NCBI GenBank assembly: GCA_041484665.1
Contig: JBGPIA010000002.1
Span: 256,001-320,000, forward strand
Reading direction: 5' to 3'
DNA length: 64,000 nucleotides
DNA from: Candidatus Krumholzibacteriia bacterium
Lineage (GTDB): Bacteria; Krumholzibacteriota; Krumholzibacteriia; JAJRXK01
Shown here: positions 16,263 to 32,018 of the stretch, one piece after another
How positions within the stretch are numbered: position 1 is the stretch's first letter
How the letters are laid out: every line of letters begins with the position of its first letter
The notes under the pieces: generated by a model
What the model saw: only the letters and a program-made list of their open reading frames with translations
Told to the model about the DNA's origin: nothing
Databases searched by the model: none
Program-made: the position numbers and the translations under genes

Positions 16263-17794
16263 CACGGCGCGACTTTCCGTGGGCGCGGGCGCGCCACCAA
16301 CAGCAGTGCGACGTTCTGCAGCGGGAGCCGCGTGCGGGCGATCAACTCGCACTCCTGCTCCCCCACCACGTCCAGCACGCGGTATCCCAGCACCACCAGC
16401 AACGCGGCCGCGGCCATCCCCAACGCGACTTGCCAGGCAGCCGTGAAGCGCTGCTGGACGGCGAGCCACAGCAGCACCGGGCTGCTGGCCGCGAACGCCT
16501 TGCCCAGCAGCCGCCAGGGGACCGACAGGCCCGGGATCTCCTTCCACGCGATGCGCGACAGCAAGAGCACCGAGAGCAGCTTGGCGGAGCCCAGCCCGAG
16601 GATTCCGCCCCACAGCCCCAGGCGAGGGATCAACGTCAGGTCGAGGGCGACGTTGACCGTCGCGAACACCACGTAGGCGCGCAGCGCCGCCCCCACGCGC
16701 TCGCGGGCGTAGACGATCATGCCGATGGGCGCCCCCAAGGCCGCGTAGCCGGCCATGACGAAGTAGGCCTGGCTCACCAGAGCTGCCGGCGCCATTGCCT
16801 GGCCGTAGAGCAGACGGATCACCGACGGGCTGAAGGCGACGCCCAGGCAGACCAGCGGCGCGATCGCCAGGTAGAGCAGGCTGAGATAGGCGCGCATCGC
16901 CCGCGGCAGCCTTGTTGCGTCTTGCACCGCGATGCGGGAGAAGCCGGCCATTGAGACCTCCCACAGCGCCAGAGGAAGGAAGTCGATCAGGCGCTGCGCG
17001 AAGGTGAAGCCGAGCTTGAAGAAGCCCGCCGGATCGGGGCCGCGGAAGTGACCCAGGAACAGCACCTCGGTCTCGCTGTGCACGAGGAAGTTCAGGACCG
17101 CGATGCCGAAGAAAGGCGCGGTGAAGTCGACGATCCGGCGGCGCGAGACCGCAGTCACCGCGGTGCCCGCCTTGACCTGCGGATCGCGGGCGATCGCGGG
17201 CGGGACCTGCAGCAAGCACGCGACGAACATTCCCCCGCCGGCGGCAGCCAGCACCCCGGCCACGCCCTTGCCGGCCGCCAGCAGCCACCAGGTCGTGGCG
17301 AGGGTCACCACGTTCCCCAGCGCCACCGCTATGGCCACCGTGCGCGTGGCGAAGCGTGCGGTGGCGCAGGCGCGTACGTAGTTGTGCAGCGAGAACGCCA
17401 GTGCCGTTGCCACGCCGATGCGCGCCAGCCCGGCCAGGGGCACGTTGAACACACGCTCCAGCGACGGCCCCAGGAGCCACGCAGCGCCCATCACGGGCAC
17501 CCAGGCCAGCACGCGCAGGCCCAGCGTCCTCCAGAAGAAGCGCGCGGCGGCGCTGCCGCCGCCACGCTCGATGAACTCGGGCACGAAGCGCAGCGCCGTG
17601 CGCTCCAGCGCCAGGCCAGCCAGCACGGTTGCCAACGCGGTGATCTGGCGCACCTCGCTGAGCACGCCGAACTCGCGCGTGGTGAGCGACCGTACGATCA
17701 CCACGCTGAGGACGATCGAGCTGACCAGGTTCGTCGCCTCGGCGACGACGCTCCAGGCCCCCGAGCGCGCATAGCCGGCCAGGTCGCGGCTCAA
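16262..17794 (-). CDS. Wzx-type flippase
   Basis: 510 aa multi-TM, REFG, LIPRLGLWG C-terminal pattern. Confidence 0.85.
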   Translation of the reverse strand: MSRDLAGYARSGAWSVVAEATNLVSSIVLSVVIVRSLTTREFGVLSEVRQITALATVLAGLALERTALRFVPEFIERGGGSAAARFFWRTLGLRVLAWVPVMGAAWLLGPSLERVFNVPLAGLARIGVATALAFSLHNYVRACATARFATRTVAIAVALGNVVTLATTWWLLAAGKGVAGVLAAAGGGMFVACLLQVPPAIARDPQVKAGTAVTAVSRRRIVDFTAPFFGIAVLNFLVHSETEVLFLGHFRGPDPAGFFKLGFTFAQRLIDFLPLALWEVSMAGFSRIAVQDATRLPRAMRAYLSLLYLAIAPLVCLGVAFSPSVIRLLYGQAMAPAALVSQAYFVMAGYAALGAPIGMIVYARERVGAALRAYVVFATVNVALDLTLIPRLGLWGGILGLGSAKLLSVLLLSRIAWKEIPGLSVPWRLLGKAFAASSPVLLWLAVQQRFTAAWQVALGMAAAALLVVLGYRVLDVVGEQECELIARTRLPLQNVALLLVARPRPRKVAP

Positions 17795-18945
17795 GCCAGC
17801 TCCTGGTGCACTCGCAGCGCGGAGCGCTCCATGAGCGCGTACAGGTCGCGGATGTGGCGCAGGGTCTCGTCGGGATCGCGCAGCCCGATCAGGCAGGCGT
17901 CGGCGCCCTTGGCATCGGGATGGTACCCGTGCATGGCCGCCAGCCTGGAGCTCCCCATGTAGCTAGGCAAGATCAGCAGGCCCTCTCCGAGAACGTAGAT
18001 GAGGTCCCCCTGGCTGCGATCGGGGAAGCGGCCGCCCAGTTGCTCCAACTCGTCGTCGGGGATGATGCGCCCCTGGCCGTGTCGCGCGAGCACGTCGCCA
18101 ATTGCAGCGAGCACCGCCGGATCCTCCGCCCAGAAGCGCGCCATCGTGGAGTCGTAGAAGGCCAGGTAGCGCCGGCCGTTCTCGCCGAGCTTGCGCTCGA
18201 CTTCTGCCTTGAGGTCGACGGCGCCGTGGACGTCGCTCATGCCATGGTCGCTGAAGATGAACGCCTCGACGGCCTCGGCCGAATCGTGGGCCACGGTGAA
18301 CAGCCGCCGCAGCCGCTCCTCGTACCAGCGCAAGTGGCGGCCGACGTCGTCGCCCAGGCTGCCCTGCGCGTGGAGCAGCCCGTCCAGGGCGTACAGGTAG
18401 AGGAACACGAAGTCGACCTGCCCCGAGATCAGGTCCCCCTCGACCGCGCGCAGGCTGGCCTCCTCCGGCGATCGCCAGTCGTAGCACGTCCAGCGCAGGC
18501 CCAGCTCGACCAGGCGGTCGAAGATGCTGCGGGCGCGGCGCAGGCCGCCCGGCGCGAAGATCGACCGGTGCTCCACCAGGTCGAAGCGCGGCAGCAGGCG
18601 CGTGGGCACCTCGTAGAGGCTGAAATAGCCGCGCACCGTTCGCGCCACGCTGGCCTCGATCCGCCGCCGCACGCGGTGGTTCTGCGCCACCCATGACGGC
18701 AGCCACGCCCACGGACGCGCCGCGTCCAGGCCCGAGGGTCCGTCGCGCAGCATGTACATCGCGCCGTGGCCGTGCTGCGCCGGGAGTTTCCCGGAGAGCA
18801 GCGTTGGCTGGCACGAGCAGCTGAAGCCGAGCACGGTGCGCAGGGCGGCCCGGTACGGCAGCTCCGGCAGGAACTCGCGGGTGCGCAGGTGCTCCGCCCC
18901 CAGCGCATCGATCATCACGAACAGCGCCACGCGTTTGCGCTTCAC
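17791..18945 (-). CDS. Alkaline phosphatase superfamily, nucleotide pyrophosphatase/phosphodiesterase-like
   Basis: GTG 18945 with GGAGGT SD; MIDALG, LDGLLH, FSDHGM, MHGY metal-binding motifs; no signal peptide. Confidence 0.85.
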   Translation of the reverse strand: MKRKRVALFVMIDALGAEHLRTREFLPELPYRAALRTVLGFSCSCQPTLLSGKLPAQHGHGAMYMLRDGPSGLDAARPWAWLPSWVAQNHRVRRRIEASVARTVRGYFSLYEVPTRLLPRFDLVEHRSIFAPGGLRRARSIFDRLVELGLRWTCYDWRSPEEASLRAVEGDLISGQVDFVFLYLYALDGLLHAQGSLGDDVGRHLRWYEERLRRLFTVAHDSAEAVEAFIFSDHGMSDVHGAVDLKAEVERKLGENGRRYLAFYDSTMARFWAEDPAVLAAIGDVLARHGQGRIIPDDELEQLGGRFPDRSQGDLIYVLGEGLLILPSYMGSSRLAAMHGYHPDAKGADACLIGLRDPDETLRHIRDLYALMERSALRVHQELA

Positions 18946-22805: not shown

Positions 22806-24242
22806 TCAGCCGGCCTTGCCTCTGCTGAAGGGCAGTCGCTTGGCCTTCTGGTCGAGGTTCGAGTCGGTCACGTCCACGTCGGGGAAGCTGGCCAGGACGG
22901 GGATCTCCAGATGACGCTCCACGTCCTCGCGCGTCTCGAGCGAGTGATCGAGGTTTTCCAGGTAGAAGGCCAGACCGATGCCCGCCATCAGGGCCAGCAG
23001 CGGTCCCAGCGCGATGCGCACCAGATCGCCTTTCTTGTTCTTCTGCGCGTCGACGGCGGGCGAGAGCAGCTTGACACCGTAGTCCTCGTAGCTGACGGAC
23101 TTGATCTTCGAGTCGGAGGCCTGCTCGTTGAGGCTGCCGTACTGCTTCGAGGCCGAGCCGATCTGGGTGTCGAGCATCTCCAGGTCGCGCACCAACCCCG
23201 GCAGCCGGGCCAGACGCTCCTCGAGGCCGCTCTGCTGTTTCTGCAGCGCGGCTTCCTCGCCGTGCGCGACGTCGAGCTCGTGCTCCTTGACCGCGATTAC
23301 GTCCCGCACCGACGACGCCAGCTGCGCGCGTAGCTGGGCGGCCTCCAGCTCCACCTCCTGGACCTGCGGGTGATGCTCGGTGTACTTGCTTCGCAGCTCC
23401 TCCAGCTGCATCGACTTCAGGCGCAACGCCTGCACAGCGTTGGCGACCGACTGTCCCTGCGCCGAGCCCATGGCCTCGTAGAACGGCAGGACCGTTTCGT
23501 CGCTGCCGAGCCTGCGCGCGGCCGCCAGCTCGGTCTCCAGGCGTGACCGGCGAACCACGATGCCGGCTAAGGACGACTGCACCTCCGACTTCACTCGGAT
23601 GAGGTTGTTCTGCTCCTGATTGATGTCGGTGAGGCCGATGCCGCTCAAGAGGGTCTTGCGCTGATTCTGCAGATTCTGCAGTGCGGCCAGCGTCGAATCG
23701 GCCTGGTGCTTGATGAAGGCGCTGGGGTCGGGGAGCTTGAACAGCTCCAGGTGGTACTCGATGTAGGCGTCGGCAACGGCATTGGCCATGCGCAAGGCGT
23801 TCTCAGGCTTGCGCGCCTTGGCTGTGACGAAGATGATGTTGCTTTCGCCGATCATCCCGGCCTTGACGTTGGTGGACAAGACGCCCAGCCCGTAGCCCAG
23901 CCCCTTGGGGTGGTCGGGTGTGGGCGCGTTCAGCTTCGCCAGCGCCCGCGCCAGGACCGGGACGCTGCGCACCACCTCCACCTCGGACTCGATGACTTCC
24001 TTCCACGGCAGCGCGCTGCCGCCGTTCTGCAGGACGCTCTCGCGGCCCTTGCGGTTGAGCATCACGGTCGCATCGGCGCTGAAGGTGACCGGCGTGTTGA
24101 AGATCTTGAACGCCGTGATAGCCGAAGCGACCAGGAAGATCCCCACGATCAGCCACTTGCGCTTGAACACCACCGCCAGCAGGTCGCGGATGGTCGTGTC
24201 GCGCTCGACAGGTGTGGGGCCTTGGGTGTACAGACCGGACAT
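22806..24242 (-). CDS. GumC/Wzz polysaccharide co-polymerase
   Basis: Two TM flanking coiled coils, YTEHHPQV, DVERHLEIPVLAS. Confidence 0.9.
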   Translation of the reverse strand: MSGLYTQGPTPVERDTTIRDLLAVVFKRKWLIVGIFLVASAITAFKIFNTPVTFSADATVMLNRKGRESVLQNGGSALPWKEVIESEVEVVRSVPVLARALAKLNAPTPDHPKGLGYGLGVLSTNVKAGMIGESNIIFVTAKARKPENALRMANAVADAYIEYHLELFKLPDPSAFIKHQADSTLAALQNLQNQRKTLLSGIGLTDINQEQNNLIRVKSEVQSSLAGIVVRRSRLETELAAARRLGSDETVLPFYEAMGSAQGQSVANAVQALRLKSMQLEELRSKYTEHHPQVQEVELEAAQLRAQLASSVRDVIAVKEHELDVAHGEEAALQKQQSGLEERLARLPGLVRDLEMLDTQIGSASKQYGSLNEQASDSKIKSVSYEDYGVKLLSPAVDAQKNKKGDLVRIALGPLLALMAGIGLAFYLENLDHSLETREDVERHLEIPVLASFPDVDVTDSNLDQKAKRLPFSRGKAG

Positions 24243-24272
24243 GAACGATCTCCTTGCCGGGAGTGCGCGGGG

Positions 24273-25094
24273 CTAGGGGGCCTGGTAGCGGTTCTTGTAG
24301 ACGTTGTTGAAGTCGATCAAGCCGTATCCCCTGATCAGGACGTCCTGTGCCTCGAGCATATGGATAAACGTCTTGCGCGCGACGTTGTCCCACCGGCTCA
24401 GTTTGTCCTTGGGCACCCACACGATGTCGTAGGGCAACACCTCGACGTCACCCCGCTTCTTGGGGTCGGCGATGTACTGCCGGAAGTCGAGGATCGCGGC
24501 TACGCCTCCCCCATCGGGGCGGCGGCGGATGAGCACGAAATTGGTGAGCTGCGCGGTATCGGTGAAACCGCCGGCGCGCGCCACGGCCTGCAGCAAGCTC
24601 AGCCGCCGCTCGTAGGCGTACTCGCCGGGGTTGCGCACCTCACCCAGCAGATAGAAGCGCCCGCCGAGCTGATTGACGATCACGTCCACGCGGGGCTGGA
24701 TGAGCACTTCGGTGTAGCCCTTCTGGATCTCCTGCGCCAGGTCGGTGGTCGTCTTGCCCTGGGCGACCAACTCGCCCAGATAGGGCAGCGTGATGCGTCC
24801 GTCAGGGCGGACCTTCACGAAGCGGTTCTGCTCCGGGTGCGAGAAGAGCACGATCTCCAGCTCGTCACCGTCGGTGATGCGGTAGGACTGTGTGCTGTCC
24901 GACGGCAGGCTCGCGGTCGTCCCTGCGGCGATGGTGCTGGCGAGCGGATCGTCGCCCGGCGTCGCGTTCCCGGTGACCTGGCCTCGATTGAGGTCCACGT
25001 CCTTGTAGGGAGCGCCGCAGCCGGCGGCCAGGGCGAGGGCCGTCAGGGCGACGAGCGATATGGCGCACCGGTGCGCGCGTCGGACGTTCGACAT
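24273..25094 (-). CDS. wza: Wza/OPX polysaccharide export lipoprotein
   Basis: LAAGC lipobox, VRPDGRITLPYLG, SLBB GEVRNPG...AGGF. Confidence 0.9.
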   Translation of the reverse strand: MSNVRRAHRCAISLVALTALALAAGCGAPYKDVDLNRGQVTGNATPGDDPLASTIAAGTTASLPSDSTQSYRITDGDELEIVLFSHPEQNRFVKVRPDGRITLPYLGELVAQGKTTTDLAQEIQKGYTEVLIQPRVDVIVNQLGGRFYLLGEVRNPGEYAYERRLSLLQAVARAGGFTDTAQLTNFVLIRRRPDGGGVAAILDFRQYIADPKKRGDVEVLPYDIVWVPKDKLSRWDNVARKTFIHMLEAQDVLIRGYGLIDFNNVYKNRYQAP

Positions 25095-25622: not shown

Positions 25623-26372
25623 TCAGCGAGCGGAGGACCCCGCCAGCAGCGCCAGGGCGATGCCCAGGCCGGCTCCCACTACCGTATTGAGGAAGTTCAT
25701 CGCCTCGTTTCCGATTCGCTGCCGCCTCCCCCAGACCGCTCCGACGTAGCTCTCAGCCAGCGCGCCGCCGAAGGCCGCGACCACCGGCACCCACAAGAGC
25801 GCCGCGGGCACCAAGCCCAGCACGCAGCCGAAGAACGCGAGCACCAACGATCCCAGCACCCCAGCCAGCGTCCCCTCCACCGAGACAGCACCCTCCGTCC
25901 CCGGAGGCACCGCACGCAGCGTCGTGGGCAGGATGGGATGCTTGCCGTAGAGCTGCCCGATCTCGCTGCCAAGCGTGTCGCTGGTGGCCGTGGCGAACGC
26001 GCTCACCAGCCCCACCGCCCACACCGGCGCGCTCGTGAATGGCAACAACGTCGCCAGCGCCATCCCGGTGGCGCAGTTGGCCGCGGCGTGGCGGCTCCCG
26101 CGACGGCCGCCCTCCTCCTGCGCGATCCCGGCGGCGGCTTTGCGGGAGTAGCCCAGCCGCGTCGCCCCCGTGCCGAGCAGGAAGAACGCGAGCAGCAGCG
26201 CCCACGACGCCAGACCACCGAACCACAGGATCCACGTGCCGACCACGACGCCCCCCGCGAAGCCGCTGCGGCTCACCGCGCCGCGGGCCAGGGCCACGCC
26301 CCCCAGCGCGAGGTTCGCCGCCACCGCCAGCAGCAGAACGGGAGCCGACAGATGCGGCCGGAGCCACTCCAC
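25623..26372 (-). CDS. DUF92 / TMEM19 membrane protein (VTE6-like)
   Basis: IAQEEGGRRG...AN, ATSDTLGSEIG, VPPGTEGAVSVEGT, ESYVGA, NEAMNFLNT. Confidence 0.9.
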   Translation of the reverse strand: MEWLRPHLSAPVLLLAVAANLALGGVALARGAVSRSGFAGGVVVGTWILWFGGLASWALLLAFFLLGTGATRLGYSRKAAAGIAQEEGGRRGSRHAAANCATGMALATLLPFTSAPVWAVGLVSAFATATSDTLGSEIGQLYGKHPILPTTLRAVPPGTEGAVSVEGTLAGVLGSLVLAFFGCVLGLVPAALLWVPVVAAFGGALAESYVGAVWGRRQRIGNEAMNFLNTVVGAGLGIALALLAGSSAR

Positions 26373-26375
26373 GCT

Positions 26376-27482
26376 TCAGCCTCCCACCGCACCGCGTGCC
26401 GCGTCGCCCGCCTCGCCCGCCGTCGCGGAACCCCGGCCGCCGGCGCCCTCCCGCGCCAGCCAGTCCAGGGTGAGTCGCAGCCCTTCGCGCAGGCCACGCC
26501 CCTGGTAACCCAGCTCGGCGCGCGCCCGCGCGTCGTCGCACGCCCAGTGGTGGGCATAGGTGCGCACCATGCCAGGCGTGAGCTGCGGCGGGACGTGCAG
26601 CAGCTCGGCGCGCAGTTGTTGCGCTGCGGCCAGGGCTGACAGCACCCACAACGGGATGCGCCGGCGCAGCCGCGGCCGGCCGGCCAGATCGCACGCCAGG
26701 TCGAGGAATCCGCGCAGCGTGGCGTTCTCGCCGCCCAGCAGGTAGGATGCGCCCCGCGCCCCGTGCGCCAGCGCCAGGCAGTGGCCGCGCGCGACGTCCT
26801 CTACGTATGCGTAGTTCCACACCTGCTCGCCGTTGCCGATCAACCCGGGCAGCCGCCCGCGTAACAGATCCTCGAGGATGCGGGCGACGTGGTTGCCCTC
26901 CGTGCGCTCCCCGGGACCGTAGATCACCGTCGGTAAACAGCTCACCACATCGAGCCCCTCTTCCGCGTGACGCCGCACCACGTCCGCCGCCCGGAGCTTC
27001 GTGCGGTCGTAGTCGTTGAACCACAGGCCGGGCGAGCGCGCCCCTTCGTCGTGGGGCAAGGGCCCCTGCGAGGGCCCCAGCACGAAGAAGCTCGACGTGT
27101 AGACCACGCGCGACACACCCGCCAGGCGGCATTCCCGCAGCAACACATCGAGGGCCTCGACGTTGACACGATCGAAGCGCGTGCGATCGCGCTCCCAGTT
27201 CTTCACGATGCCCGCGGTGTGCACGACGGCGCGCACCTGCGCCAGCACCGGGCGCCAGGTCGCCGGGTCGAGCAGGTCCCCCTCCTGCCAGCGCAGCGCG
27301 AGCGTGGGCAAGCCCTGGCGTCGGGCGCCACGGCGTGCCAGCAGCGTGACGCGGTAGCCCGCCTCTACCAGCTCGTGCGCCAGCGCCTTGCCCAGGTATC
27401 CCGTCCCGCCGGTGAGCAGCACCGGATCGCCCGGCGAGAGCATCGCCACGTCGCCGGAGGCCGGCTGCGCCGGGGTGCTCAT
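26376..27482 (-). CDS. Extended SDR, HpnA / farnesol-dehydrogenase-like
   Basis: TGGTGYLG, VYTSS, YDRTK, PTVIYGPG, VEDVARGH, YLLGGEN. Confidence 0.85.
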   Translation of the reverse strand: MSTPAQPASGDVAMLSPGDPVLLTGGTGYLGKALAHELVEAGYRVTLLARRGARRQGLPTLALRWQEGDLLDPATWRPVLAQVRAVVHTAGIVKNWERDRTRFDRVNVEALDVLLRECRLAGVSRVVYTSSFFVLGPSQGPLPHDEGARSPGLWFNDYDRTKLRAADVVRRHAEEGLDVVSCLPTVIYGPGERTEGNHVARILEDLLRGRLPGLIGNGEQVWNYAYVEDVARGHCLALAHGARGASYLLGGENATLRGFLDLACDLAGRPRLRRRIPLWVLSALAAAQQLRAELLHVPPQLTPGMVRTYAHHWACDDARARAELGYQGRGLREGLRLTLDWLAREGAGGRGSATAGEAGDAARGAVGG

Positions 27483-28177
27483 GCCCACAGGCGGCCGCGC
27501 AGTGCCGCCAGCGTCAGCGCAGTTGCGACGGGGACGAGCAGGTTGTCGACGCCGTAGAGCGAGACCGCTTCGGCGAGCGTCGCAACCAGCGCCGCCGCCG
27601 CGGCGGCCAGCAGCAGCCCGCCGCTCAGAGCGGATGACGCGAGCCCTCCCTCGGGGACGCGCCCCAAGAGCGCGAACGCCAGCAGGATCGACAGCCACCC
27701 CACTGCCGCCATGGCCACGCTGCCCTCCAGCGTCCGCGGGTGGCCGGCGACGCGGTACGTGCGCCGCCCGAATCGCCGCCCCACGAGCGACGCCGCCGCG
27801 TCACCGTAGGCCATCACCAGCACCCCGGCCGCGCCGACGGCGCGCCAGCCAGGCTCCCAGCAGGTGGCCAGCAGCAGCGCCACGCTCAACGGATAGAGCA
27901 CCGTACCGACGCTGTGCTCCTCCCCCTCCATGCTGGCGATCCAGCCGAAGCGGTGGCTGAGCGCGTTGACCGCTGTGAACCCCAGCGCCAACGCCGCGGG
28001 CCATCGCCACGTGCTGAAGAGCAGGTAGCTCGGCACGATCCAGCTGCCGATGCCCACGTGCACGATCTTGCGCGTCACCTGCCGCGCCAGGCCGCGGCGA
28101 CGGGCCAGCTCGGCCACCAGGATCACCGCTGCGACCCACGCGGCCGACAGCAACACGCCGCACAGGTCACGGCTCAC
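27479..28177 (-). CDS. CTP-dependent polyprenol kinase (phytol/farnesol/dolichol kinase, SEC59/VTE5 family)
   Basis: RKIVHVGIG, AYGDAAASLVGRRFG, RTLEGS, DNLLVP; GTG 28177 with GGAGGGAG SD. Confidence 0.85.
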   Translation of the reverse strand: MSRDLCGVLLSAAWVAAVILVAELARRRGLARQVTRKIVHVGIGSWIVPSYLLFSTWRWPAALALGFTAVNALSHRFGWIASMEGEEHSVGTVLYPLSVALLLATCWEPGWRAVGAAGVLVMAYGDAAASLVGRRFGRRTYRVAGHPRTLEGSVAMAAVGWLSILLAFALLGRVPEGGLASSALSGGLLLAAAAAALVATLAEAVSLYGVDNLLVPVATALTLAALRGRLWA

Positions 28178-28556
28178 GGAGTGCTCCCTCCAGCACGACC
28201 ACCGCGATCGCCTGGTCCCGCTCGTGGCTGATGGAGACGTGGACCGCGCCACCGCCCAGCGCCCCATGGACGCGTGCCGCGGCGCGGTGGAAGCGGATGG
28301 TCGGGCGCTGGGACTCGCCGCCCACCAACTCGACGTCGCGCCAGGCAATGCCCAGCGCGAGCCCGGTGCCCAGCGCCTTGAGCGCAGCTTCCTTGGCGGC
28401 GAATCGCCCGGCCAGGCACTCGTACATCCGCCGGCTGCGGCAGCGTTGGCGCTCCGCGTCGGTGAAGACGCGGGCGAGGAACCGCTCGCCGTAACGCGTG
28501 GCCAGCTCCTCGATGCGCCGCACGTCGCACAGGTCGACGCCGATCCCGACGATCAC
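28167..28556 (-). CDS. acpS: Holo-[acyl-carrier-protein] synthase
   Basis: IVGIGVD, AGRFAAKEAALKALGTG, VHVSISH. Confidence 0.95.
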   Translation of the reverse strand: MIVGIGVDLCDVRRIEELATRYGERFLARVFTDAERQRCRSRRMYECLAGRFAAKEAALKALGTGLALGIAWRDVELVGGESQRPTIRFHRAAARVHGALGGGAVHVSISHERDQAIAVVVLEGALREP

Positions 28557-28638
28557 GGCGCGCCGCTCCGCCCGCTGGAAGCTTGGCCGCCGGCGATCCG
28601 GCCACGGTCCACCGGGATGCCCGCACTTGGCTCGCGCG

Positions 28639-29568
28639 CTAGAAGATGTAGGAGACGGCGAACCCGATCTGCAGCGCCATCATCATGAGGTACATGTGGG
28701 TCCACGACGGGTGGTTCTCCGTGGTCGCGAGCTCGTCGGGGCGCCTCACCAGCAGCCAGACGGTGTAGATCCCCCACGCCGCCAACAGCAGCCCGAGCAG
28801 GTCCAGCAGCCGGCCGTTGCCGGTCAGGATACCTGCGCGCACGCCGACGGGCAAAAGGACAAATGGAAGCACGAAGAACGGAGCGATCATCCACGCCGCG
28901 CGCTTCACGCCGAAACGCACCGGCAGCGTATAGCAGCCGTTGGCCTCGTCGCCCTTCATGTCGGCGAAGTCCTTGGTCGAGGCTGCCCCCAGCAGGAACA
29001 GGAAGAAAATCGAGCCGATGTACCACGGCTCGACCGCCAGGAAGCTCTTGACCGTGGTCCAGCCCGCCACCTTGAGCATGAGCCCGCGCGGAAGTGCGAT
29101 CGTGAGGTTGGCGCCCAGCGCGTCGCGCTTGGTCCGCAAGGGCGGCGCCGAGTAGGCCCAGGTCAGCACCGCGGCGGTCGCGGCCAGCGCGAAGCACTGC
29201 CAGTTCACCAGCGCGGCCAGCGCGAGCGCGATCGCGTAGAGAGCCGCCGTGACCGCCCGGGCCTGCGCGATGGACATGCGCCCCGAGGGGAGCGCGCGCT
29301 TGGGTTTGTTGATGGCGTCCACCGGCAGGTCGTAGATCTGATTGATGCCGTTGCTGGCCGCATTCAGGACGGCGGCCATCAGCGCCCCCACCAGCACGCG
29401 CAGCGCCATCTCCCAGCCGAACGTGCTGCGGGGGTGGGCGCCGAACGCGGTGATCCCGCCGCTGACCATCCCCAGTGCGGGCGGCCACAGCGTGAACGGC
29501 CGGGAGAACTCCACGTAGAGCCGCAGGCGCTGGAGCGCCCCGAGTACGGGCACGGCGGTGGTGGTCAT
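28639..29568 (-). CDS. UbiA-family prenyltransferase (DGGGP-synthase/chlorophyll-synthase-like)
   Basis: NQIYDLPVDAINKPKRALPSG, YSAPP, KDFADMKGD. Confidence 0.9.
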   Translation of the reverse strand: MTTTAVPVLGALQRLRLYVEFSRPFTLWPPALGMVSGGITAFGAHPRSTFGWEMALRVLVGALMAAVLNAASNGINQIYDLPVDAINKPKRALPSGRMSIAQARAVTAALYAIALALAALVNWQCFALAATAAVLTWAYSAPPLRTKRDALGANLTIALPRGLMLKVAGWTTVKSFLAVEPWYIGSIFFLFLLGAASTKDFADMKGDEANGCYTLPVRFGVKRAAWMIAPFFVLPFVLLPVGVRAGILTGNGRLLDLLGLLLAAWGIYTVWLLVRRPDELATTENHPSWTHMYLMMMALQIGFAVSYIF

Positions 29569-29634
29569 GTGGCGTCCTGGTGCGCTGGCGAGCGCGGCGG
29601 GCGGGGCCCTACCCCGCCAGCGGCGCTCCGCGCG

Positions 29635-30321
29635 TCAGTAGGCTCCCTTGCGCGCGATCACCGCAGGCACGGTACGCATGAGGATCCAGAAGTCCAGCTT
29701 CAAGCTGCGCCGGCGCACGTACTCGCCGTCCAGGCGCATCCACTCCCCGAAGTCCACGTCGTTGCGGCCGCTGATCTGCCACAGGCAGGTGATCCCGGGC
29801 TTCACCAGCAGCCGCACGCGGTCTTGTGCCGAGTAGCGCGCGACCTCGTCGGGCACCTGGGGACGGGGGCCAACCAGGGACATCTCGCCGCGCAGCACGT
29901 TGATGAGCTGAGGGAACTCGTCCAGCGAGCTGCGACGGACGAAGCGGCCCACGCGCGTGACGCGCGGGTCCTCGCGGATCTTGAAGGCGGCCCCATCGGC
30001 CTCGTTGAGGTGACTGAGGCTCGCGCGCAGCTGCTCGGCGTTGCGGATCATGGAGCGGATCTTGTAGCAGCGGAAGACGCGGCCGTAACGTCCTGCGCGC
30101 TCCTGGCCGAACAGGAAGGGCCCATCGCTCTCGAGCCTCACCAGCAGGAACAAGAACGGCACCAGCGGCAGGAACAGCAGCAGCGCAAAGGAGGCCGCGG
30201 CGGCGTCCACGACCCGCTTCACCGGCTCGTACAGAAAGTGGTTGCCGACGGGAACGGCGGGCTCCTCCACTGCGCTCCCCAGGTTCGTGGCCTGAGCGTG
30301 CCGCTGCGTCAAGATGGACAT
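29635..30321 (-). CDS. Priming polyprenyl-phosphate sugar phosphotransferase (Bac_transf)
   Basis: KRVVD, DPRVTRVGRFVRRSSLDEFPQ, MSLVGPRP, KPGIT. Confidence 0.95.
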   Translation of the reverse strand: MSILTQRHAQATNLGSAVEEPAVPVGNHFLYEPVKRVVDAAAASFALLLFLPLVPFLFLLVRLESDGPFLFGQERAGRYGRVFRCYKIRSMIRNAEQLRASLSHLNEADGAAFKIREDPRVTRVGRFVRRSSLDEFPQLINVLRGEMSLVGPRPQVPDEVARYSAQDRVRLLVKPGITCLWQISGRNDVDFGEWMRLDGEYVRRRSLKLDFWILMRTVPAVIARKGAY

Positions 30322-30368: not shown

Positions 30369-30397
30369 AGCGTACCATTGCGCCTGGCGGCGGTCAA
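30369..30397 (-). promoter_or_regulatory. Sigma-70 promoter for the sugar transferase-ubiA operon
   Basis: TTGACC-N17-TACGCT with TGn extended -10. Confidence 0.6.
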
Positions 30398-30467: not shown

Positions 30468-32018
30468 TCACCCCTGCGGCCGGCGGTCGTAGAGCAGGAC
30501 CTCCACGCCGGGCAGTCGAAACACGCCTACCCGTGGGAAGCGGCGGTCCAGCGTGGCGCGCAGCTCCCCGTGCGGGTCGTCCACCCACGCGCGCGCCCGC
30601 ACGTACCACAGGTACCGTTTCTCAGCGGTGCGGTCCTCCACGACGTCGGCCACGCTGGGAGGGCTGGGCCAGCCGGCGGGCAGATAGACGCGTACCGGGC
30701 TGCTGCCGCGGTAGTAATAGAGAAAGACGTGCCCGATCGTGGGGGCGAGCACCAGGTCCTCCCGACCTTCGCGCGCCTCCACCAGCCGCGCGGCAGCGCG
30801 CACGTCCTCGCGCTGGTAGTCGGGGACGAAGTAGTAGCGCGCCAGCGCTACGCCGCTCACCGCCAGCCATCCCACCATCAGCAGCAGCGCGCTGCGGCGT
30901 GGCAGCCGCTGGAACCCCGCCCCCATCACCAACAGCAGCGTGGGCAACGCTGCGATGGTGTAGCGCGGGTTGAACGGCTTGATGTTGCGCAGCGCCAGCA
31001 GCAACGCGATCGCCACGGGCACGGCCGCCCACAAGAGCGGCTCGACGGCGCGCCGTCGCAGCGCGCTCAGCCCCGCGACCGCCAGCGTGGCGGCCAGAGC
31101 AGACACGGCAAGCACGAGCGGCAGGTGGCGGCGTGGTAGTGACAGGCCCGCGGCCGGATCGCGGCCGGCGGCCTCCTGCAGCTCGCGGGGCGACGGCCCC
31201 AGCGTCGTGCCCACAGCCAGCACGTACCCCGCGTAGGGGATCGCCCACGCCGTCATGGTCGTCTTGCCGCGCAGCGGCTCCCCCGTCTCCTGCCCCGGCA
31301 GCAGGCGCTTGCTCTCGTGGATGCGCAGGCTGGCGCTCCACCACGGCAGCGTGATGGCCAGGAGCAGCGTGAACGCCAGGGTCCAGCGGACCGCATCGCG
31401 CCGACGGATGCGCCCGGCCGCGAGCAGCCCCAGGGCGAATCCGCCCATCCAGAACAGCCCCTGCAGGTTGCAGAGCGCCGCCGCGCTGCCCAGGAGCGCG
31501 AAGGCCACGGCGCGGCCGCGCGCCAGGCGCTCGCCCGCCGACAGAGCCACCACGATGGCGGCAAGCCCGAAGAACAGCAGGTAGGCGTAGCCGCGAACCT
31601 CCTGCGCGTGCCAGATGTGGAAGGGGTGGATGGCTAGCAGCAGCGCCGCGAACAGGCCGGTGCGCGCGCCGTGCAGCCGGCGGCCGACCTCGTACAGCAG
31701 GGGCACTGAGAAGGCCCCCAGCACCGCGCCGGGCAGGCGCAGCCAGGCCTCCGCCGGCGAGCTGCGCCGCAGCCACGCCACCAGCACCATGGGCAGCGGA
31801 CTCTGTACGTCATCGAGGAACTGCTCCCACAGCGAGTGCCCCGGCTGATTGCCCTGGTTGATCGTGAGCAGCTCGTCGACCCACAGGCTCTGCGCACCGA
31901 TCCGGTACAGGCGCAGGATCAGCGCCAGCAGCGTCAGCAACATGACCGCCAGCGCCACGGACTCGCGGGGCAGCGCGCGGCGGGCTGATTCGAACCGGTC
32001 GTGCTCGGGCGCCGTCAT
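30468..32018 (-). CDS. GT39/PMT-like GT-C glycosyltransferase
   Basis: SLWVDE, WLRLPG, HAQEVRGY, PRY; multi-TM. Confidence 0.85.
   Translation of the reverse strand: MTAPEHDRFESARRALPRESVALAVMLLTLLALILRLYRIGAQSLWVDELLTINQGNQPGHSLWEQFLDDVQSPLPMVLVAWLRRSSPAEAWLRLPGAVLGAFSVPLLYEVGRRLHGARTGLFAALLLAIHPFHIWHAQEVRGYAYLLFFGLAAIVVALSAGERLARGRAVAFALLGSAAALCNLQGLFWMGGFALGLLAAGRIRRRDAVRWTLAFTLLLAITLPWWSASLRIHESKRLLPGQETGEPLRGKTTMTAWAIPYAGYVLAVGTTLGPSPRELQEAAGRDPAAGLSLPRRHLPLVLAVSALAATLAVAGLSALRRRAVEPLLWAAVPVAIALLLALRNIKPFNPRYTIAALPTLLLVMGAGFQRLPRRSALLLMVGWLAVSGVALARYYFVPDYQREDVRAAARLVEAREGREDLVLAPTIGHVFLYYYRGSSPVRVYLPAGWPSPPSVADVVEDRTAEKRYLWYVRARAWVDDPHGELRATLDRRFPRVGVFRLPGVEVLLYDRRPQG

Follow-up and report, generated by a model that had tools for sequence, protein, structure and literature searches.

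A conserved gene module built on an uncharacterised UbiA clade with VTE5- and VTE6-like proteins, probably making an undescribed cell-envelope lipid

Introduction

What would a bacterium that is not phototrophic do with homologues of the kinases by which plants salvage phytol? The question is raised by a genome of Candidatus Krumholzibacteriia bacterium (GenBank assembly GCA_041484665.1; hereafter G000), in which a 64,000-nucleotide stretch of contig JBGPIA010000002.1 (positions 256,001 to 320,000), referred to below as the window, encodes a UbiA-superfamily prenyltransferase together with a SEC59/VTE5-type kinase-like protein and a DUF92, or VTE6-like, protein. According to the part of a review available to us (PMC9782597), VTE5/FOLK and VTE6 provide a precedent for stepwise phosphorylation of prenols, and prenol-salvage kinases outside phototrophs are largely unidentified. 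The original prediction, made from the window alone, arranged the genes into a route from a prenal through a prenol, its phosphate and its diphosphate to a prenylated product. Here, we show that the UbiA, kinase-like and DUF92 genes form the core of a module found in several phyla, describe further enzymes that accompany it, and argue that its product is probably an undescribed cell-envelope lipid.

Results

A three-gene core recurs in several phyla

Open reading frames and domain matches agree on six co-directional genes on the minus strand at 25623-30321 of the window, just as predicted. Three of them constitute the core of the module, namely the genes for the UbiA-superfamily enzyme, which belongs to an uncharacterised clade (28639..29568, minus strand; PF01040, E 1e-40), for a SEC59/VTE5-type, CTP-dependent lipid-alcohol kinase-like membrane protein (27479..28177, minus strand; assigned from conserved residues and weak PF01148 matches of its relatives), and for the DUF92/VTE6-like membrane protein (25623..26372, minus strand; PF01940, E 2e-48). 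Linkage was assessed within 7 kb of UbiA relatives in the best 80 of 343 genome loci and the best 80 of 584 metagenome loci, many of the latter on short contigs, with genes called by a simple gene caller before clustering. DUF92 lies near UbiA in 30 of the 80 genome loci and 49 of the 80 metagenome loci; in several phyla it is adjacent, rearranged or fused to the kinase, and one clean DUF92::UbiA fusion was found (P0166). In a sample of 201 Acidobacteriota genomes, DUF92 is encoded by all 69 that have the clade UbiA, versus 26 of the 132 that do not (the 69 include an unpublished genome, G223, also counted once in the DUF92 and desaturase tallies). Among 151 genomes of the window's own phylum, clade-level UbiA matches are confined to the family of G000, weaker matches elsewhere being proteins similar to digeranylgeranylglyceryl phosphate (DGGGP) synthase. 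DUF92 is present in 8 of 10 genomes of this family, in none of 20 sister-family genomes over the cut-off, and in 48 of 50 further clade genomes, which include two duplicates (of G007 and G008). The expected co-conservation of UbiA, kinase and DUF92 is thus borne out.

Gene order varies around this core: UbiA-acpS-kinase-SDR-DUF92 in the window (SDR, short-chain dehydrogenase/reductase), SDR-kinase::DUF92-UbiA in Vicinamibacteria, phosphodiesterase-SDR-kinase::DUF92-UbiA in loci L376-L379, and DUF92-UbiA-membrane protein-radical S-adenosylmethionine (SAM) enzyme in L007 and L187. UbiA is split off in Eisenbacteria, where SDR and DUF92 are still paired, and Thermoanaerobaculia keep a kinase::DUF92 fusion at a site separate from UbiA. 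Twenty of the 26 DUF92 loci from clade-free Acidobacteriota were read; no clade UbiA is nearby and DUF92 mostly stands alone. In four loci (L414, L415, L419 and L425), a kinase::DUF92 fusion lies beside nucleotide-sugar genes (with lptD as well in three of the four) and UbiA is gone from the locus, a pattern that suggests stepwise decay or relocation of the module.

Two further observations concern the 3′ side of UbiA. Directly downstream of it in 16 loci and in L380, across lineages, is a gene for an unannotated membrane protein of about 250 residues with a conserved LLNYM motif (L010:4134-4886, L007:1434-2054, L380:6777-7511), which has no Pfam or NCBIfam match and was not found in G000 by a hidden Markov model search. 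In one genome, the genes 3′ of UbiA (L388:5110-7848) resemble, by eye, those for a fatty acyl-AMP ligase, an acyl carrier protein and an isoprenylcysteine methyltransferase.

The UbiA enzyme falls in a clade of its own

The window UbiA has the features of its superfamily: PF01040 (140 bits, cut-off 34), the UbiA fold, two aspartate-rich motifs and YxxxxxK. It passes no NCBIfam subfamily cut-off, scoring best with ChlG (119 bits versus a cut-off of 313), PRK12884 (111), BchG (102 versus 212) and homogentisate phytyltransferase (HPT; NF009525, 97 versus 226); DGGGP synthase models give 79-111 bits (cut-offs 269-353), the EboC model 52 (cut-off 250), and models of quinone, heme and decaprenylphosphoryl-5-phosphoribose (DPPR) synthases (UbiA, MqnP, MenA, CtaB) all less than 70. 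In a 128-row tree, 106 relatives lie on one side of a branch with SH-aLRT support of 94. A 72-row tree, built without three long-branch rows, from 37 of the 93 representative rows and with three further chlorophyll synthases from Acidobacteriota, supports the clade at 85 and places it apart from both ChlG/BchG (six rows, support 99) and the DGGGP synthase groups (97), its sister being unresolved; the trees are without HPT rows, the searches run having returned no HPT sequence. Judged by these scores and trees, the enzyme sits apart from chlorophyll synthases, DGGGP synthases and the quinone/heme enzymes, and the original prediction survives this test, in which a place within a canonical quinone/heme clade would have counted against it. 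Members of the clade also occur in Brocadiaceae, Planctomycetota, Deltaproteobacteria and Thermoplasmatota; P0170 and P0265 are Thermoplasmatota members by their source names, P0167 branches with them, and all three carry the residues that mark the clade (below).

A predicted model of the enzyme (pLDDT 92.9) has as its closest solved fold the DGGGP synthase of M. jannaschii (6m31; Z 27.9, root-mean-square deviation (rmsd) 3.8, 279 residues aligned). The DPPR-synthase fold 8j8j ranks low (Z 19.0, rmsd 3.3, 257 aligned), solved ChlG is absent from the results of this fold search, and an Atlas search returned UbiA clusters only. The essential aspartates of DGGGP synthase, given as D66, D70, D180, D183 and D187 in the accessible part of PMC9385802, correspond to D80, D84, D200, D203 and D207 here, kept in 101-105 of the 106 clade rows; Y139 and K147 of YxxxxxK are conserved as well. 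The clade is marked by Q77 (93 of 106 rows), R161 (102), W289 (102) and Y293 (101). Of these residues, R161 is predicted to lie within a membrane helix, and only two of the 22 reference rows share it, both EboC-type proteins.

Its nearness to DGGGP synthase in fold and sequence, and the automatic annotation of some Thermoplasmatota members as such despite their clade marks, could be taken to mean that the enzyme is an archaeal-type DGGGP synthase making diethers from salvaged geranylgeraniol. The scores far below every model cut-off speak against this, as does the separate branch (support 97) of true DGGGP synthase-like proteins from sister families and haloarchaea. Moreover, no full-length geranylgeranylglyceryl phosphate (GGGP) synthase (PF01884) was found in 60 incomplete genomes, which yielded seven weak partial matches, in a search in which 5 of 14 controls passed the cut-off; an archaeal-type diether is unlikely for this reason. 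Glycerol-1-phosphate dehydrogenase gave weak PF13685 matches only, and the geranylgeranyl reductase family, over its cut-off in one of five genomes, is uninformative. We consider a DGGGP synthase of the archaeal type highly improbable. In the sister families without the clade (L090-L100, L254-L267), a DGGGP synthase-like UbiA is often found between a Wzi-like gene and uppP- and valS-looking genes, and its distribution looks complementary to that of the clade UbiA.

The aspartate-rich motifs bring in a second alternative. The second motif (K199-D200-x-x-D203, D207) reads KDxxDxxGD, which we take to be that of HPT, and not NDxxSxxGD as in ChlG/BchG. The first (N76-Q77, D80, D84) reads NQxxDxxxD in 93 of 106 rows, which is the motif of plant aromatic prenyltransferases according to the portion of PMC7197402 at hand. 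Residues 130-175 match the HPT model best, if weakly (E 3.5e-4 versus 7e-4 for ChlG), and R161 could bind a carboxylate. The enzyme might thus act like HPT and, fed by VTE5/VTE6-like salvage, C-prenylate an aromatic acid to yield a quinone or chromanol. However, the whole-protein HPT score of 97 bits is far below 226, and 4-hydroxyphenylpyruvate dioxygenase (HPPD) was not found in G000 (94% complete) and occurs patchily whether or not the clade is present (5 of 9 family, 23 of 50 other clade and 9 of 20 clade-free genomes). Tocopherol cyclase was found in none of five genomes, G000 included, in a search in which control genomes also gave no match over the cut-off, and an MqnP-like UbiA already accounts for menaquinone. 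An aromatic acceptor therefore appears unlikely to us.

The MqnP-like protein is one of four other UbiA-family genes of G000, the rest being a heme O synthase (CtaB), a DPPR-synthase-type and an EboC-like gene. The EboC-like gene (G000:C4:67343-67972, L105) is 4 kb from a short terpene-cyclase-like PF13243 match (C4:71751-72155, L397), possibly an ebo-type cluster. A UbiA gene at G000:C2:659351-660073 (L104) passes the decaprenyl-phosphate phosphoribosyltransferase cut-off and is near another sugar phosphotransferase gene, in a non-actinobacterial host.

The kinase-like protein and DUF92

The window kinase has no Pfam or NCBIfam match of its own; 6 of 20 aligned relatives, the window protein not among them, match PF01148 weakly (best E 5e-4). 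All 20 rows share invariant G125-D126, G133, G152, E203 and D211-N212, a motif that presumably likens the protein to SEC59/VTE5, and 62 long DUF92-cluster proteins have N-termini that align to it, which makes them kinase::DUF92 fusions. The top Foldseek rows of its model are CdsA (E 0.08), and CarS (5guf) aligns with residues 108-229 (Z 6.9, rmsd 3.3, 104 residues), with unrelated helices ranking equal; comparison with PDB sequences, by single sequence and by profile, gave nothing credible, and no row of a wide fold search reached a Z of 8. The protein is best called a putative CTP-dependent polyprenol kinase.

DUF92, a single-copy protein in G000, matches PF01940 with 165 bits (cut-off 27.5) and TIGR00297 with 179, below the cut-off of 206. 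Fusion of a Sec59-like kinase domain to DUF92 is already known from archaea, where an isoprenoid kinase step was predicted for it, according to the part of PMC5898192 seen. In the phototrophic acidobacterium G341, which has no clade UbiA, the same kinase::DUF92 fusion is accompanied by three chlorophyll-synthase-family genes (L409, L427-L429), a pairing that ties the kinase family to prenyl-diphosphate supply.

Enzymes encoded elsewhere accompany the core

Three partners were picked by fusion or adjacency before any profile was computed. A phosphodiesterase of the alkaline-phosphatase family is cleanly fused to the clade UbiA in P0126, P0225 and P0229, which were read, and in P0307 by its listed domains; it shares an operon with the module in L376-L380 and lies 3′ of UbiA in Brocadiaceae loci. 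A fatty-acid-desaturase domain is cleanly fused to UbiA in P0156 and P0310, and a variant radical SAM gene is close behind UbiA in four loci. The G000 homologues of the partners lie at C5:28054-29043, C1:783981-785261 (the variant radical SAM) and C2:39636-41720, with identities of 54%, 60% and 40%. Six further candidates (P0304, P0305, P0306, P0308, P0312 and P0314) contain linkers that look like frameshifts and were scored as adjacent, not fused, genes; a link to a sulfotransferase was dropped, as it comes from one such record (P0306) and has no G000 homologue.

Within the family, 9 of 10 genomes encode the desaturase, as do 38 of 50 other clade genomes but none of 20 from sister families; the radical SAM enzyme is encoded in 9, 39 and 0 of the same sets, and the phosphodiesterase in 10 of 10 family and 47 of 50 other clade genomes. 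In Acidobacteriota, counted with no lineage-matched control gene, the desaturase is found in 36 of the 69 genomes with the clade and in none of the 132 without it, the radical SAM enzyme in 55 of 69 versus 3 of 132, and both in 28 of 69. The co-occurrence of the desaturase and the radical SAM enzyme with the core thus repeats in two phyla, and HPPD, scored on the same 80 genomes as the family, sister-family and other clade counts, displays no such pattern. The radical SAM protein belongs to NF045502 (198 bits, cut-off 125), has the variant cysteine motif Cx10Cx2C, and its family has no section in the outline of PMC13459092, the part of that source consulted. The desaturase matches only GntB and CrtR hydroxylases, weakly, so that it may hydroxylate rather than desaturate. 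No solved relative was found for either protein, and an Atlas search with the radical SAM enzyme was empty. In 5 of 30 loci (L328, L335, L337, L341 and L342) the radical SAM gene adjoins one resembling inositol-3-phosphate synthase, a faint hint as to the acceptor; in G000, a homologue with 68% identity sits at the end of a contig (C2:3-1037).

The desaturase fusions also fit another donor. A fatty-acid-derived allylic alcohol, formed with the SDR and the desaturase and activated by the kinases, might be joined by the UbiA enzyme in ether linkage to glycerophosphate or a lysolipid, giving non-isoprenoid ether lipids. This would explain a route through a free alcohol in spite of the methylerythritol phosphate (MEP) pathway; the closest fold is, moreover, that of an ether-forming lipid synthase, the clade UbiA of Brocadiaceae is followed by a phosphodiesterase gene, and some Brocadiia make alkyl ethers, possibly via alternative routes (PMC11868695, in part). 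In its broadest form, such a route would be cross-phylum: a free long-chain alcohol, possibly fatty-acid-derived, would be activated to its diphosphate and moved by a UbiA resembling the archaeal lipid synthase, and a radical SAM and a diiron enzyme would, as a pair, carry out the chain chemistry without and with oxygen, respectively. A non-isoprenoid donor would give the module a bearing on bacterial ether-bond formation, and the cross-phylum route, if true, would be a further pathway beside ElbD, Agps and Ger, spanning Acidobacteriota, Krumholzibacteriota, Eisenbacteria, Myxococcota, anammox Brocadiaceae and Thermoplasmatota archaea. Yet we know of no non-isoprenoid donor for UbiA enzymes, a literature listing yielded no lipid data on organisms that carry the clade, and the SDR is dispensable. 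Furthermore, as far as the sections seen of the respective papers go, UbiA-type chemistry requires an allylic donor (PMC9385802) and Ger homologues occur in Brocadiia (PMC11868695). Both the non-isoprenoid donor and the cross-phylum route as a whole strike us as doubtful.

Accessory and neighbouring genes of the window

The SDR (26376..27482, minus strand; PF01370) has HpnA (TIGR03466) as its best NCBIfam match, at 196 bits below the cut-off of 368, and 3wj7, which we take to be an aliphatic aldehyde reductase, as its closest solved sequence (E 7e-36); we assume its likeness to the plant farnesol dehydrogenase FLDH. At ortholog level (at least 37%) it is near UbiA in 27 of the 80 genome loci, seven more weak epimerase matches being excluded. 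It is missing between kinase and DUF92 in L002 and L174, and a search at E 1e-25 that had no positive control found it in none of five genomes (G005, G007, G073, G010 and G013, two of them of the same family). The description as HpnA/farnesol-dehydrogenase-like hence stands for a frequent but accessory gene that misses the HpnA cut-off, and, the SDR being accessory, conversion of prenal to prenol is not the obligatory first step that had been proposed. A hopanoid role was rejected, as no full squalene-hopene cyclase was found in five genomes, G000 giving nothing beyond short partial matches.

Two more of the six genes are neighbours within this family only and lie outside the core: the housekeeping holo-ACP synthase gene acpS (28167..28556, minus strand; TIGR00516 over the cut-off), near UbiA in 6 of 80 genome loci, and a gene for a small polyprenyl-phosphate sugar phosphotransferase consisting of the catalytic domain only (29635..30321, minus strand; PF02397, E 1.5e-61), near it in 7 of 80, in both cases in close kin. 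Spacers of 66 nt separate phosphotransferase from UbiA and of 82 nt UbiA from acpS, and the last four genes overlap or nearly abut, as had been noted: acpS and kinase share 11 nt, kinase and SDR a 4-nt ATGA, and SDR and DUF92 are 3 nt apart. The predicted sigma-70 promoter, read from the sequence as TTGACC-17-TACGCT with an extended TG (30369..30397, minus strand), matches the consensus at 8 of 12 positions and has similar motifs 5′ of the phosphotransferase gene in 4 of 9 family loci, in four others of which the upstream GT-C gene abuts the phosphotransferase; it is below the threshold of a promoter scanner, which found no site.

The module is embedded in a larger lipopolysaccharide/exopolysaccharide region. 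Upstream, at 30468-32018 on the minus strand, lies a gene of the GT-C glycosyltransferase type (PMT_2, just below the cut-off), and downstream, at 22806-25094 on the same strand, are wza and a Wzz-domain gene, all of which keep their places in the family. Within the exopolysaccharide region, an open reading frame at about 17791-18600 (minus strand) looks by eye like a nucleotide pyrophosphatase/phosphodiesterase; queries with the fused phosphodiesterases gave no match there.

Such surroundings invite the view that the module recycles or builds a polyprenyl-phosphate carrier or lipid anchor for the adjacent glycan synthesis. Envelope genes indeed neighbour it in separate lineages, namely phosphotransferase, GT-C and wza genes in G000, nucleotide-sugar genes in both Acidobacteriota (there together with lptD) and Eisenbacteria, and a GT2 gene in Thermoanaerobaculia. 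However, these neighbours vary by lineage with none common to all, G000 has a separate UbiA of the decaprenyl-phosphate phosphoribosyltransferase type, and the 8j8j fold ranks low. A carrier is, furthermore, a monophosphate, whereas the VTE6-like step proceeds to the diphosphate, which the UbiA enzyme would use. Archaeal DUF92 genes adjoin uppS, as reported in the part of PMC5898192 seen, which favours a carrier; on balance, we rate this role as improbable. A prenyl-ether glycan anchor is compatible with the reading that we favour as well.

Discussion

We favour a reading in which the kinase-like protein and DUF92 would use CTP to add two phosphates in turn to a free isoprenoid alcohol, from prenol to prenyl phosphate to prenyl diphosphate; the UbiA enzyme would ionise this allylic diphosphate and alkylate an anionic acceptor, linking the prenyl chain as an ether to an oxygen of a phosphorylated polyol head group; and the resulting cell-envelope lipid would be finished by the phosphodiesterase, radical SAM and desaturase enzymes encoded elsewhere. 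The radical SAM and diiron enzymes might be oxygen-independent and oxygen-dependent versions of one C-H activation step, and the SDR, where present, would supply the alcohol from its aldehyde. For this sequence of events as a whole we estimate a probability of roughly 45%. Its parts differ in strength: the two kinase steps, modelled on plant and cyanobacterial VTE5 and VTE6, are quite likely, and attachment to the oxygen of an anionic polyol, such as inositol or glycerol phosphate, has about an even chance, being favoured by the fold, R161, the parallel with EboC (which, we assume, prenylates a cyclitol) and the recurring phosphodiesterase. Action of the three tailoring enzymes on the same lipid is predicted from their profiles. 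The original route from prenol through its phosphates to a prenylated product is supported in part, with the SDR step no longer obligatory and with acpS and the phosphotransferase as neighbours outside the core.

Several observations weigh against this reading. The motif likeness to plant aromatic prenyltransferases and the slight preference of residues 130-175 for HPT point to another acceptor. DUF92 also occurs in 26 of 132 Acidobacteriota without the clade UbiA and need not be a kinase here, because it resembles cytidylyltransferases (PMC5898192, in the part available). More distant paralogs of the phosphodiesterase are found in 8 of 20 sister-family genomes, 6 of 69 clade Acidobacteriota have neither desaturase nor radical SAM enzyme, and the counts overstate independence since the genomes are kin. 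Genome G004 has the desaturase and the phosphodiesterase with no UbiA or DUF92 match; its wza region as a whole likewise escaped detection and appears to be missing, for which reason it was dropped as a natural knock-out. Finally, a donor route through the free alcohol is unexplained given the MEP pathway and three prenyl-diphosphate synthases in G000; with DXR present in 5 of 5 genomes, salvage does not make up for a lost de novo route.

The clade is present in about a third of the sampled Acidobacteriota (69 of 201) and in several uncultured phyla; being so common, its product may be an abundant soil or sediment lipid that lacks a gene assignment. The module offers a defined set of candidate prenol-salvage kinases from non-phototrophs for testing, a candidate pathway context for the uncharacterised radical SAM family NF045502 and for a desaturase-like family and, as proposed, a new class of acceptor for UbiA enzymes.

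Among known systems, the route by which plants and cyanobacteria salvage phytol (VTE5/FOLK of COG0170 and VTE6 of COG1836, feeding ChlG, HPT and MenA) likewise couples a SEC59-type kinase and DUF92 to a UbiA-family enzyme, and the same fused kinase pair occurs in phototrophic G341. The module differs in that its hosts are non-phototrophic, with no chlorophyll turnover supplying phytol, its UbiA is none of ChlG, HPT or MenA, and it adds radical SAM, desaturase and phosphodiesterase partners. The archaeal DGGGP synthase and its homologues in the FCB group (PMC7852524) share the closest solved fold and all catalytic aspartates, whereas the module UbiA forms a separate clade with Q for the first D of NDxxD, the membrane arginine R161 and clade-specific C-terminal W289 and Y293, and no GGGP synthase partner was found. 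The ebo operon resembles the module in having UbiA beside an alkaline-phosphatase-superfamily gene (one Bacillus eboC is followed by a nucleotide pyrophosphatase/phosphodiesterase gene), in the arginine at the position of R161 and as a tree neighbour whose position is unresolved; it differs in that the window UbiA, at 52 bits, stays below the EboC cut-off of 250 and G000 has an EboC-like gene of its own, and the short stretch of ebo sequence examined showed no kinase pair. Archaeal COG0170-COG1836 fusions (arCOG02245 plus a Sec59-like domain) have the same two domains as those of the module, are also uncharacterised and, in the part of PMC5898192 seen, are reported next to uppS rather than UbiA. 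The kinase pair and its fusion are therefore of kinds already known. No prior description of the UbiA clade with its extended gene set was found in the literature searched, which covered few subscription journals, and what is new here is that the profiles of the desaturase and the radical SAM enzyme track the core module.

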